Shown here piece by piece: positions 2,911 to 63,645 of a stretch of DNA of 64,000 nt; position 1 is the stretch's first letter; each line of letters starts with the position of its first letter. Source of the DNA: Eledone cirrhosa (taxonomy: Eukaryota); NCBI GenBank assembly GCA_964016885.1, contig OZ024752.1, positions 41,850,001 to 41,914,000 of the forward strand, in the 5' to 3' direction. The position numbers and the translations under genes were made by a program. The notes under the pieces were generated by a model. That model was not told the origin of the DNA. It saw only the letters and a list, made by a program, of their open reading frames with translations, and searched no databases.

Positions 2911-3348
2911 AGCCGGTATGAATTTTTTTTCTCTCTCTCTCTCTCGTCTGCGACTTCACAGAACTTATGTTTACCGAATCCGCAGACCAGACCCCTTCCT
3001 CCCCCCGTTAGACCTGTGCGAAATTCCTTCCTTGCTCACATTTCAACCAGGTTTGATGGTCTTTATTCTCTCATTCACGATTTCACCGAATTTATATTCA
3101 TAGAAATCTGGGACTTGTCTCTTTCTTCTCACTTTCTGTTGCTTAAACCATTTTGTTTGTTTACCCTAGCGTCCCCTTTATTTACATGTCCCAACGACTT
3201 TTTTTAGACGTTGTTCGCACCAACCTGAGGTATATGGCCCTTAAAGCGATGAAATGCCTAGGACGGTTGGAGGGTCACTGATGAAGGACTTACTTTTTCA
3301 TATGCACCACCATTTGCAACGCCGCAGCTCCATTACTATCATATTTAC

Positions 3349-6029: not shown

Positions 6030-7085
6030 CCTTGTATTATACTGTAAGTGGCTGAATATCCTATAGACACATATACCATTAACATATACCATTAACATGA
6101 TTCTCAGGGAGATTCAGTATAACACAGTCTACGATAAGGCCAGCCCTTTGAATTATAGGTCCAGTCTACCTTGTATTATACTGTAAGTGGCTGAATATTC
6201 TATAGACACATATACCATTAACATGATTCTCAGGGAGATTCAGTATAACACAGTCTACGATAAGGCCAGCCCTTTGAATTATAGGTCCAGTCTACCTTGT
6301 ATTATACTGTAAGTGGCTGAATATTCTATAGACACATATACCATTAACATGGTTCTCAGGGAGATTCAGTATAACACAGTCTATGATAGACACATATACC
6401 ATTAACATGATTCTCAGGGAGATTCAGTATAACACAGTCTATGATAGACACATATACCATTAACATGATTCTCAGGGAGATTCAGTATAACACAGTCTAT
6501 GATAGACACATATACCATTAACATGATTCTCAGGGAGATTCAGTATAACACAGTCTATGATAGACACATATACCATTAACATGATTCTCAGGGAGATTCA
6601 GTATAACACAGTCTATGATAGACACATATACCATTAACATGATTCTCAGGGAGATTCAGTATAACACAGTCTATGATAGACACATATACCATTAATATGA
6701 TTCTCAGGGAGATTCAGTATAACACAGTCTATGATAGACACATATACCATTAACATGATTCTCAGGGAGATTCAGTATAACACAGTCTATGATAGACACA
6801 TATACCATTAACATGATTCTCAGGGAGATTCAGTATAACACAGTCTATGATAGACACATATACCATTAATATGATTCTCAGGGAGATTCAGTATAACACA
6901 GTCTATGATAGACACATATACCATTAACATGATTCTCAGGGAGATTCAGTATAACACAGTCTATGATAGACACATATACCATTAACATGATTCTCAGGGA
7001 GATTCAGTATAACACAGTCTATGATAGACACATATACCATTAACATGATTCTCAGGGAGATTCAGTATAACACAGTCTATGATAA
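6030..7085. repeat. Minisatellite: about three ~123-bp units, then about 13 58-bp units, inside a minus-strand SINE-like repeat
   Basis: Unit atagacacatataccattaacatgattctcagggagattcagtataacacagtctatg; degenerate SINE head at 7170-7225. Confidence 0.9.
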
Positions 7086-22809: not shown

Positions 22810-23072
22810 TCCAGCCGTCGCATGTCCTCTGCAGTTGCTGCCCATGTCTCACTACCATGCAGCATCGCGCTCATCACACAGGCATCATACAACCGGCCTT
22901 TCGTACGCAGGGAGAAACCCTTCTTCGTCAACAGAGGAAGCAGCTCCTTAAACTTCTTCCAACCCGTCCTTATTCTAGATACTATGGCCTCGGAACACCC
23001 TCCTCCCATGCTAATCTGATCTCCTAGGTACCGGAAGCTATCCACCACTTCTATAGCGCCCTCCTGCATTTG
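22810..23072 (-). mobile_element. Inverted partial copy of the adjacent RTE fragment
   Basis: Near-identical reverse complement of 23290-23553. Confidence 0.9.
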
Positions 23073-23289
23073 AAAAATATATATATATATAACAAAGTAA
23101 TTGTGGTAAGGAACCAGATGGACTATAACGCACCAGATATATATATATATATGTATAGAGAGCGAGGGAGATGGGAAAAGTCATACTTTTTCCTATTTCC
23201 CACTCTTCTACCTTAAGTATTGAGTACTCTGGTGCGTTTTTGTCCATCTGGTTCCTTACCACAATTACTTTGTTATATATATATATTTT

Positions 23290-23950
23290 TCAAATGCAGG
23301 AGGGCGCTATAGAAGTGGTGGATAGCTTCCGGTACCTAGGAGATCAGATTAGCATGGGAGGAGGGTGTTCCGAGGCCATAGTATCTAGAATAAGGACGGG
23401 TTGGAAGAAGTTTAGGGAGCTGCTTCCTCTGTTGACGAAGAAGGGTTTCTCCCTGCGTACGAAAGGCCGGTTGTATGATGCCTGTGTGAGGAGCGCGATT
23501 CTGCATGGTAGTGAGACATGGGCAGCAACTGCAGAGGACATGTGACGGCTGGAGAGAAATGAGGCAAGCATGCTCCGTTGGATGTGCAGTGTAAATGTGC
23601 GTGAACGACCCAGCTTAAATGTGTTGAGAGAGAAACTGTGTCTGAGAGGGATAGAATGTAGTGTACGGGAGAGGAGACTGAGGTGGTATGGACATGTGAT
23701 GCGCATGGAGGATGACCGATGGGTGAAGAAGTGCCAGGAATTGCCAGTTGAAGGAAGACATGGTAGAGGTAGACCACGAAAAACATGGGCGGAGGTGGTG
23801 AGAGCAGACCTCAGATCATTGAAGCTCACGGTGGAGATGACGAGGGACCGTGACGAGTGGAGAGATGCTGTGCTGAATAAGACCCGTCCCACCCTTGCAA
23901 GCAGGGAAAAGCGGACATAAAATGATGATGATGATGATGATGATGATGAT
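23290..23950 (+). mobile_element. 5'-truncated RTE-clade LINE (ORF C-terminus plus (ATG)n tail)
   Basis: FRYLGD..YDACVRSAILHGSETW..RRLRWYGHVMRM..GRGRPRKTW motifs; in-frame TGA at about 23543 where the inverted copy has CGA. Confidence 0.9.
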
Positions 23951-24689
23951 ATATATATATAACTTAATACACACCATTTGTTTATTAAATAAAAAATATA
24001 TACTTATACATATTTATCTTTGTTACTATAACATATTTTTTGAGAAAATGATTTTAACAGAGATTTCAGGAGAATTTTGGCTAAATTTATAATTTTTTGA
24101 TGTATCAAAGTGTTTAATTATTGTATTTTGTTCAGGAATATATTTTTGATAGTAATAAAACTTACAAATCATTAGTATGATTACCAAAACATCTGAAGAG
24201 AGAGAGCAAGTGAGAAGGGAAAGAAGGAGAGAGTGGGGGAAGAAGGAGAGAGCGAGAGAGAGGGGGAAGGAGAGAGTGGGGGATAAGGTGAAGGAGAGAG
24301 TGAGAGATAGGGGGAAGAAGAGAGTGAGGGATAACGTGAAGGAGAGAGTGAGAGATAGGGGGAAGAGCGAGAGAGGGGGAATAAGGAGAGAGCGAGGGAG
24401 ATGGGAAAGAAAGAGAGAGCGAGAGAGAGGGGGAAAGAGGAGAGAGCGAGAGAGGGGGAAAGAGGAGAGAGCGAGAGAGATGGGAAAGGAGAGAGCGAGA
24501 GAGATGGGAAAGAAGGAGAGAGCAAGAGAGAGCGAGAGAGATGGGAAAGAAGGAGAGAGCAAGAGAGACCAAATAGGTCGAAGCAACTTCATCTTGCTCA
24601 CATATTCCATATTTGGAATGGTTTCTACAGCTAGATGCCCTTCCTAACACCAACCCCTCTACAGAGTGTACTGGGTACATTTTATTGTA

Positions 24690-31686: not shown

Positions 31687-31711
<25 letters not shown>

Positions 31712-31720
<9 letters not shown>

Positions 31721-32082
31721 GTGAGGTTTTTTTTACAAAATGAAAAATAACCGAGGTGTCCTACACGAGTGAAAGTATAAAGAAAAAGAGATGAAATTGA
31801 AAATGCAACTGGAGTCTTATTTTTTTTTTTAAATATATATATTTATTTGGTTCCTTTACCGGTTTCGCAGTTCTTCTGCTTTTCAAAAGGTGAGTTGAGA
31901 TGGAGGGTCTGTGGTTTTTCTCACATCGGCCCTTGTGAGAAAAACCACAGACCCTCCATCTCAACTCACCTTTGAAAAGCAGAAGAACTGCGAAACCGGT
32001 AAAGGAACCAAATAAATATATATATTTGTTTTTTAAAATAAAACTCCAGTTGCATTTTCGATTTCATCTCTTTTTCTTTATA
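31712..32082. mobile_element. Inverted duplication of the 60427 element (~150-bp arms, 8-nt spacer)
   Basis: Arms about 31776-31925 and 31934-32082, each containing the HHR. Confidence 0.8.
31853..31890 (-). ncRNA. Second intact copy of the U3-A8 hammerhead
   Basis: Reverse complement identical to 60589-60626; a third copy at 31969-32005 (+) lacks one T. Confidence 0.75.
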
Positions 32083-33946: not shown

Positions 33947-34693
33947 CTCACTATCTTATGATAGTAAGCTAATCATGCTAACCATTAAGCTATAAGCCTT
34001 CACGTGCCTGTAGAGTAAATTAGATGCCAGCTCTGATAGACTTAACCTGTTGAGAAATGATGATGTTCATGAAAAACACTTCATTTTATGCAATCGAATG
34101 CCAAAGAAGTTTATATATACAAACACAGGAAGTTACACCTCATCTCCGCCCTCATCCCTTCTCCGGTTCCCCCAACTCTTCAAAAGGATTTCATTTTTAT
34201 TTTCTTCTTCATCCTCTTTGTTTCTCTATCTTCTTCCTTTTTATTATTAATATCATCATCACCATCATCACCATCATCATCATCATCATCGTTATTATTA
34301 TTATTAGGCAGATTCAGAGTATGGGTGGAGGTACAAAATGTTTTGCGGCATTTTTATTCCAAGTCTTATCCTGCTTTTCATCCTTCTGGGGTCAATAAAA
34401 TAAAGCAACAAAGAAAGTGTTGGGGGTCATTTAATCATTTTAGCCCTCCTCTGAAATTGCTGGCCTTAACAATAGTATATATATATATATATATATAGAT
34501 AGATAGATAGATGAGATTCTACACGACTAGAACTGTTTCCTTCTTTAGAAATCATCAGATATATATACATATATCATTTGTATGCATTAATAATTTTCAT
34601 AATTTAGGGGTTCAATGAGATATGAAAACTATTTCAAGGGTTCCACAATTTAATTATTTTATCCCTCCTCTCAAATGATTGACCTTAACAATA

Positions 34694-59253: not shown

Positions 59254-60240
59254 TTTGCCTAGTGAAATAAACAAGGGCGATGCTCACGGCCCATTCAAGG
59301 TCTCTAAGACCCTTTCACGGCCCTTTCAAGGTCTCTAAGACCGGTAGATCGGGATTTCAGGATAGGATTCGTGTCGTGAGAGTTGTAAAGTTAGTTAGGG
59401 TTAAGCTTAAGTGTATATGTGAAAGTTTGTGTTTGAAGGTGTGTGGCTCAGCGGTTAAGGTGCTGGTCCCACGACCGTAGTGTCGTAAGTTAGATACTTT
59501 ATTTCACGTAGCTGGCAAAAAAAATATATATATTTCTTTATTTACCATAAAGGCATAAACAGAAGGGACAAATACAAAGGGGGAGTTTACATCAAATCGA
59601 GTAAAAAGGGTATAAAATGAAAATAATCGAAAACAACCTCAAAAGGGAGGGGACCTGATGGGGGTTGCACACACCCCCGAAAAAGTGTGCAATCCTTTGC
59701 CCGGGGAGCACATGGAGAAGGTGCTCCCCTCTCCTTCACTTCTTTACCTACAGGATGGTATACAGAGAAGGCCCATTTACACGAGCCATTCTCAGCTGGC
59801 AAAAAAATATATAGAGAGAGAGTTGTACTTCAAAGAGCCAAGCCTTGTCATCACCCACTGTATCGTGTTGAATCTGAGAACTGCGTTGTGACTGCACGTG
59901 TCTGTGGCATGCTTAGTCTCTTGTAGGTTAATTTTACGATCAGGCTGTTTAATTGATTGAATCGACTGGGAACGACAGAGGGACAATACCATGCTCCTAT
60001 ATTTTAAGCCTTCCGTCGATAAGGAGCTCAAGCCCTTCCAATAATGTGGAAACTTGTTGAATTATCTTAAAGTTTTTGTTAGTAAAAAAATTACGTATTA
60101 CTGTTGAAATTACAATACCATCAAAGACATCAATAGTTGTGAATGGCAATATTGATAATTGTTTCTACTTTAGGCACAAGGCCAAGTAGAAACAATTATT
60201 ATAAAATAACAGGATGGTGTAATTCCTTAAAACGTTTATT

Positions 60241-60298: not shown

Positions 60299-60426
60299 TC
60301 GAAATATAACAAAGGAATATAATAGACAAAATCCATGGAGCTGAAAATCAGAGACATGAAGGCGGCCGACCATTTAACAGCTACCAGCCCGGTCAACCGC
60401 CCTCAAGTAATAATATATATATATAT

Positions 60427-60757
60427 AAACAAGGGCGATGCTCACGGCCCTTTCAAGGTCTCTAAGACCCTTTCACGGCCCTTTCAAGGTCTCTAAGACC
60501 GGTAGATCGGGATTTCAGGATAGGATTCGTGTCGTGAGAGTTGTAAAGTTAGATGTGAGAAAAACCACAGACCCTCCATCTCAACTCACCTTTTGAAAAG
60601 CAGAAGAACTGCGAAACCGGTAAAGGAACCAAATAAATATATATATTTTTAAAAAAATAAGACTCCAGTTGCATTTTCGATTTCATCCCTTTTTCTTTAT
60701 ACTTCCACTCGTGTAGGACACCTCGGTTATTTTTCATTTTGTAAAAAAAAACCTCAC

Positions 60758-60765
<8 letters not shown>
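60427..60765 (+). mobile_element. ~340-bp non-coding element carrying the U3-A8 hammerhead, flanked by (TA)n
   Basis: 5' part repeated at 59268-59392; 3' part repeated as an inverted pair at 31712-32082. Confidence 0.7.
60589..60626 (+). ncRNA. Minimal type I hammerhead with U3-A8 core variant
   Basis: CCTT-TTGAAAA-GCAG aagaa CTGC-GAAA-CCGG-TA-AAGG; palindromic ACCGGT stem III, GUA triplet, AATAAA downstream. Confidence 0.75.
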
Positions 60766-60845
<80 letters not shown>

Positions 60846-63594: not shown

Positions 63595-63645
63595 AGATTC
63601 CTGATGATTTCTCACGAATGAAACAGTTCTAGTCCTGTAGAATCT
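63595..63645 (+). ncRNA. Type I hammerhead ribozyme motif, complete
   Basis: AGATTC-CTGATGA-tTTC tcac GAAt-GAAA-CAG ttctagtc CTG-TA-GAATCT; 6-bp stem I, GUA triplet, CTAG palindrome in loop III, ATTAAA downstream. Confidence 0.8.

Follow-up and report, generated by a model that had tools for sequence, protein, structure and literature searches.

Why a hammerhead-like motif should read UUGAAAA where the core is expected to read CUGANGA, and whether a motif changed at both positions 3 and 8 can still act as a ribozyme, are the questions raised by a stretch of DNA from Eledone cirrhosa (assembly GCA_964016885.1, contig OZ024752.1, positions 41,850,001 to 41,914,000 of the forward strand), whose full 64,000 nucleotides are referred to here as the window. 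The reading that we favour, at a probability of roughly 70%, is that the motif is a minimal type I hammerhead in the pseudo-LTR (pLTR) of a young, high-copy Penelope-like element (PLE), that it probably self-cleaves weakly as a dimer, and that a U3-A8 pair has taken the place of C3-G8.

The motif and its insertions in the window

On the forward strand, the 38 bases of the motif read CCUU-UUGAAAA-GCAG(AAGAA)CUGC-GAA-ACCGGU-A-AAGG. Stem I (CCTT) is followed by the core TTGAAAA, with U3 at 60593 and A8 at 60598, by stem II (GCAG/CTGC) closing a 5-nt loop, by GAA, and then by ACCGGT (60616-60621), A17 (60622) and AAGG. Apart from positions 3 and 8 the core is canonical throughout, and the GUA triplet at 60620-60622 fits the NUH cleavage requirement, which places the predicted cut after 60622. 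A sequence-only reading had reported this core and an identical copy at 31853-31890, and both are indeed seen, the latter on the minus strand, which had gone unstated; a third copy that it overlooked, at 31968-32005 (+), has one T fewer, and its helix I is therefore out of register. Its description of stems I, II and III as perfect holds for stems I and II of the window copies, where helices I and II around the core have 4 bp each, but stem III forms only between two molecules, and perfect stems are confined to the youngest subfamily, both helices being 3 bp long in older ones.

It was also anticipated correctly that standard CUGANGA searches would miss the family: the plain pattern count is 0, and a local Rfam scan at the motif returns no hammerhead family down to E 10. 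In the Rfam scan of the whole window a hammerhead is likewise absent among the best 150 of 285 matches. However, the Rfam test is insensitive for PLE motifs, because even the motif at 63595, whose core is canonical, reaches just 12 bits. The local Rfam matches to MALAT1 (20 bits against 70, sub-threshold) and to rli38 were taken as chance.

In the window, a PLE terminal repeat is represented by fragments that are inverted or lack the 5' part and end in (TA)n (Table 1), the one at 60551 starting 72 nt upstream of the predicted cut. A 128-nt duplicated stretch (59267-59394 and 60425-60552, 99% identical, with an internal direct repeat) adjoins the 5' end of this insertion. The window also contains a second hammerhead family, at 63595-63645 (+) and 34514-34558 (-). 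Its core is the canonical CUGAUGA, helix II has U.U at its base, helix III is a true 4-bp stem, the site is GUA, and this family too ends in (TA)n; in the copy at 34514, the 5' side of helix I is missing. Fragments of the reverse transcriptase of a different retrotransposon, which we take to be non-LTR and RTE-like, lie at 22983-23380 and 23344-24003 and partly form a long inverted repeat.

Table 1. Motif copies and PLE-derived insertions in the window.
Feature	Position	Strand	Basis
Minimal type I hammerhead motif, U3-A8 core	60589..60626	+	Sequence, folding
Identical hammerhead motif	31853..31890	-	Reverse complement same as 60589-60626
5'-truncated pLTR fragment	60551..60770	+	220 nt match the pLTR of full-length copy L121 at 98.6% identity
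(TA)n tract at insertion 3' end, likely target	60765..60843	.	Sequence; TA repeats follow one of two tail ends in 28/30 copies sampled
pLTR fragment, long arm of head-to-head inverted insertion	31708..31927	-	95.9% identical to L121 pLTR
Inverted short arm of the 31708-32082 insertion, carrying the third motif copy (31968-32005)	31934..32082	+	Sequence comparison

A Neptune-type Penelope-like element as host

The motif is located in the pLTR of a Neptune-type PLE with reverse transcriptase (RT) and GIY-YIG domains. At one locus (L033) a 770-aa frame with both domains ends about 1 kb upstream of the motif, and in the full-length copy L121 the motif occurs at 1818-1855 and again at 6490-6527, 4,672 nt apart. 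Between the two lie ORF1, of 400 aa from its Met, and a 771-aa RT/GIY-YIG frame that overlaps it. The frames of L033 and L121 match PF00078 (RVT_1) and PF01541 (GIY-YIG), and the RT/GIY-YIG protein has 894 homologs at E <= 1e-30. The motif stands at both ends in L119 as well, and a same-strand motif lies 1,341-1,345 nt upstream in 6 of the 30 loci that hold the 5' region of ORF2. The full-length element thus runs from hammerhead through ORF1, RT/GIY-YIG ORF2 and 3' UTR to a second hammerhead, a tail and (TA)n.

As is characteristic of EN+ PLEs, RT precedes GIY-YIG, pLTRs occur in partial tandem together with inverted 5'-truncated copies (window 31708-32082), and the hammerhead lies in the pLTR. 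The ORF2 protein, as read from its translation, has a CX4CxxC linker (CGRSNCGTC) and a CCHH motif. Passages of Craig et al. (2021, PMC8557442) on EN+ PLEs of the Neptune clade describe the same C-terminal GIY-YIG with CCHH, a CX2-5CxxC linker, insertion into (TA)n targets, partial tandems accompanied by 5'-truncated inverted copies, and a 3' hammerhead. The element is probably Neptune-type, Neptune being preferred over Nematis on grounds of architecture.

Two further observations concern the element and its relatives outside the window. At L121:3132-3222 (G000:C10) the two ORFs overlap, ORF2 being in the -1 frame relative to ORF1; a U_UUU_UUA heptamer stands at 3153, and a hairpin follows after 7 nt. 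Of 8 relatives examined, 4 (L123, L124, L129, L134) carry this heptamer in register, and 2 more (L125, L205) have a six-U run. The overlap in L121 is, from its sequence, likely a programmed -1 frameshift. An ORF1 set off by a frameshift has been noted for some PLEs, one figure legend giving an ORF1 frameshift with a pseudoknot (Fig. 1 in PMC8557442, among its passages on these elements), and a literature search for a described slippery site found none. Animal-type PLE contigs are also present inside assemblies labelled as bacteria (L123-L218, for example L204, L205 and L208-L212), with homologs annotated as symbiont proteins, and the closest named homologs of the ORF2 protein are from assemblies of mollusc symbionts; the contigs are likely host contamination.

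Pairing of positions 3 and 8 within and across families

Within the family the U3-A8 core is fixed. Genome-wide, the 11,632 exact copies of a 27-mer anchor include 10,850 that are exact U3-A8 copies of the 34-mer, and there are 0 of its C3-G8 version. Single variants in an otherwise exact motif number 42 for C3-A8 and 15 for U3-G8, compared with 29 for A6G, which alters an essential position, and 29 for A7G, which alters a free one; C3-G8 doubles are expected 0.06 times by chance and observed 0 times. While A8G, at 15, is somewhat rarer than A6G or A7G, at 29 each (p about 0.02-0.05), the members of inverted pairs do not count independently, and A6 itself has no deficit. Because A6 and A7 singles are equally common, within-family allele counts cannot show selection. 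Since the singles at positions 3 and 8 are likewise at the level of neutral decay, inserted copies decay regardless of function. Thus, comparing allele frequencies at the two positions across all genomic copies, which had been proposed as a check, does not discriminate between the possibilities. It may be that selection acts on source elements alone, and that the thousands of solo fragments decay neutrally.

The subfamilies differ in their stems. Among young copies, stem I is CCTT in 23/30 and ACTT or AATT in 7/30, and in a single public DNA run the A allele accounts for about 38% of the contig depth. An older subfamily group, with 993 exact matches of the downstream pattern, is U3-A8 too: both U3 and A8 are kept in 27/30 of its copies, and C3 or G8 occurs in 0/30. 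Depending on the subfamily, A-U, A.G or C-G stands at the outer end of helix I, and U.U, G.U or G-C at 10.1-11.1, the older subfamilies having amplified with just 3-bp helices and U.U or G.U at the latter. The core is unchanged across subfamilies, and the best stems are found in the youngest. Covariation among the family's own subfamilies does not rise above a shuffle control (375 of 500), and a search for an ancestral C3-G8 subfamily (22 pattern hits against 9 in the control, 20 inspected) found none. One of the C3-G8 hits, L080, is a single decayed old copy of the family; three family-related ones (L081, L083, L087) look like junction artefacts, and the others are unrelated sequence or belong to other families.

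A more informative comparison is that across families, for which a descriptor that leaves positions 3 and 8 free was applied to 96 loci of related PLEs from other organisms. It gave 25 hits in 23 of the 96 loci, and positions 3 and 8 are Watson-Crick in 25 of 25 (20 C-G, 3 U-A, 1 A-U and 1 G-C; counting distinct motifs only, n=21, the numbers are 16, 3, 1 and 1), while five shuffles of the set gave 0 hits. On a quick RT tree of 22 rows, which is unrooted with respect to the direction of the switch, the U-A state takes 4 changes, of which well-supported branches force at least 3; among the 6 closest relatives of the element, 5 have C-G. Since all hits are paired at 3-8 and U-A occurs on separate branches, selection on the pair is supported. 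From these sequences, the 3-8 swap appears both recurrent and compensated, and its direction was probably from C-G to U-A, as far as an unrooted tree permits. Repeated swapping of this kind among PLE hammerheads argues for selection on the active fold. The sequence-only reading was right to see a double change that retains the tertiary 3-8 Watson-Crick pair in a multi-copy family. Its appeal to selection for catalysis needs dividing: selection on the 3-8 pair is supported by the cross-family comparison, but the counts within the family are uninformative.

The four U3-A8 motifs (L131:1790, L140:2216, L180:2650 and window 60593), though on separate branches, all read UUGAAAA, with A at the free position 7, where C3-G8 motifs have A, U, C or G. 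The A3-U8 and G3-C8 motifs (L169:1969 and L183:117) are single hits and could be chance; the G-C one lies upstream of its ORF.

Cleavage, rival readings and known hammerheads

How would such a motif cleave? In the monomer, helix III amounts to 2 bp closing a 2-nt loop, which is beyond ViennaRNA scoring. ACCGGU is a palindrome, however, with a self-duplex of -8.3 kcal/mol, and in the folding models helix III closes in the dimer only, not in the monomer; the helix has the A15.1-U16.1 pair and the dimerisation palindrome of PLE motifs. Against shuffled sequences the monomer fold has no advantage in stability (z -0.94), and folds of 76 and 149 nt contain no extended helix I or loop 1, the contact between loops 1 and 2 being poorly defined in published minimal motifs too. 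By analogy with these (passages of PMC4209133 and PMC6765202), two motifs would pair through the palindrome and so build helix III. Cuts after GUA at both repeats would release an RNA of 4,672 nt that, in L121, would start 168 nt before the ORF1 AUG.

Copies that start at the predicted cut are rare. There are 77 that lack A17 before the downstream 27-mer, and 16 of 30 inspected truly start at the cut, giving an estimate of about 41 against about 6,200 comparable intact copies, or some 1%, counted at the cut position alone. Among intact copies (loci L001-L030), 18/30 begin 63-73 nt upstream of the cut, within a range of 44 to at least 247 nt. Most insertions therefore appear to come from uncut RNA, and cleavage is probably slow or not needed for insertion. 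An alternative pairing of U3 with A17, set out below, likewise points to weak cleavage. Published minimal PLE hammerheads cleave poorly in vitro (in the relevant passages of PMC4209133). For insertion of an anole PLE in vitro, hammerhead cleavage is reported as dispensable (passages of PMC11167929). The cluster of 5' ends 63-73 nt upstream of the predicted cut, which includes the window copies at 60551 and 31927, is perhaps a transcription start or a template-switch hotspot.

It is possible, though we consider it unlikely, that the motif, of hammerhead descent, has lost nearly all activity and persists by inertia or for another role of the pLTR, such as promoter function or protein binding, with U3-A17 pairing masking the cut. 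This pairing extends helix I and is favoured by 1.7 kcal/mol in the monomer (-6.4 vs -4.7) and by 1.4 kcal/mol in the dimer (-20.3 vs -18.9), so that the minimum-energy folds of both contain it; it is the analogue of the C3-G17 trap proposed for minimal hammerheads (in passages of PMC3884650). The motif is uncut in some 99% of comparable insertions, amplification of the older subfamilies went ahead with weaker stems, and Naiad PLEs reach high copy number without canonical hammerheads (according to passages of PMC8557442). However, hammerheads with G17 do cleave if stabilised by tertiary contacts (as passages of PMC3884650 state), and a U-A trap should be weaker than a C-G trap. Near-inactivity also sits poorly with positions 3 and 8 being kept as a pair across families, with a core that stays constant over subfamilies of which the youngest has the best stems, and with U3, A8 and A17 all recurring in the related element L131.

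The same alternative pairing permits a rather doubtful refinement of the weakly cleaving dimer, in which U3-A8 and the GUA site together form a built-in throttle. U3 would alternate between two partners, A8 in the active pair and A17 in a pair that covers the cut, so that most element RNA would stay uncut and be copied into the genome. If so, the family, whose subfamilies are graded in stem strength, would allow a natural test of whether a slow hammerhead favours the spread of Penelope elements.

We regard it as very improbable that the motif unit is an independent non-coding retrozyme or SINE-like repeat of about 220 nt, replicating via small circular RNAs. Most copies are short with a similar start, as the cluster of 5' ends illustrates, and a derivation from PLE pLTRs has been proposed for animal retrozymes, whose hammerheads are of type I (bioRxiv 10.64898/2026.07.22.740005). 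Yet the short unit and the pLTR of coding elements share 98.6% identity, the 5' ends of the unit vary from 44 to at least 247 nt before the cut, close pairs are mostly inverted among the first 100 places listed, and the short head-to-tail hammerhead array that would mark a non-LTR retrozyme is absent within the window. A chance resemblance to a hammerhead within A/T-rich repeats can hardly be entertained: although the core sits in T and A runs, the folding z-score is not significant and an Rfam hammerhead match is absent, the motif is not chance because its 27-mer anchor has 11,632 exact copies in the 3.0-Gb genome against 0 for the reversed control, it is the single full descriptor match and lies at the expected pLTR position, close relatives share the architecture with C3-G8, one of them with the same ACCGGU helix III (L125, L134), and the cross-family descriptor search, with 0 hits in shuffled controls, had already largely refuted this reading.

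A minimal hammerhead that probably cleaves weakly as a dimer has close counterparts among known systems. In searches on U3-A8 hammerheads and on hammerhead ribozymes in octopus, the latter judged by title and opening of the abstract among the papers listed, the present PLE family was not found; Lunse et al. (2016) and one supplement of PMC4209133 lie outside these searches and may list the family or test U3-A8 with A17. Covariation of C3/G8 to U3/A8 in several natural hammerheads, already proven active in vitro, is described by Perreault et al. (2011, PMC3088659), who thus report the same compensatory swap, in passages that concern neither PLE pLTR motifs nor the present family. The Cercyon motifs of Schistosoma mansoni, as presented in passages of Cervera and de la Pena (2014, PMC4209133), are PLE motifs with U3-A8, found about 1,300 times by a dedicated descriptor. 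They share with the family described here the type I topology, a short helix I, a palindromic helix III for dimers, the U3-A8 pair and the location in a PLE pLTR, and they too are mostly solo truncated copies, with some opposite-strand pairs. They differ in helix II, which is 4 bp here with no extra nucleotide after A9, whereas it is 7-8 bp with one in S. mansoni, and in their heterogeneity, as opposed to 10,850 identical 34-mers in a young homogeneous family. Again unlike Cercyon, the present family has GUA as its predicted cut site and is carried by a Neptune-type element in which an ORF1 lies upstream. The Poseidon element PAc of Anolis (passages of Frangieh et al., 2024, PMC11167929) also has a pLTR hammerhead, whose activity depends on the 3-8 pair and whose uncut RNA is the main insertion substrate, but it has canonical C3-G8, a hammerhead that overlaps the start of its single ORF, and activity tested in vitro.

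The U3-A8 variant is therefore real but already published, as a natural variant since 2011 and in PLE hammerheads since 2014, and the present family is a new example of it. What it adds is a natural set of U3-A8 motifs that is very large, homogeneous and linked to near-intact source elements, and it offers a ready series of constructs on whether cleavage matters for PLE amplification. Surveys for hammerheads need to leave the 3-8 pair free.
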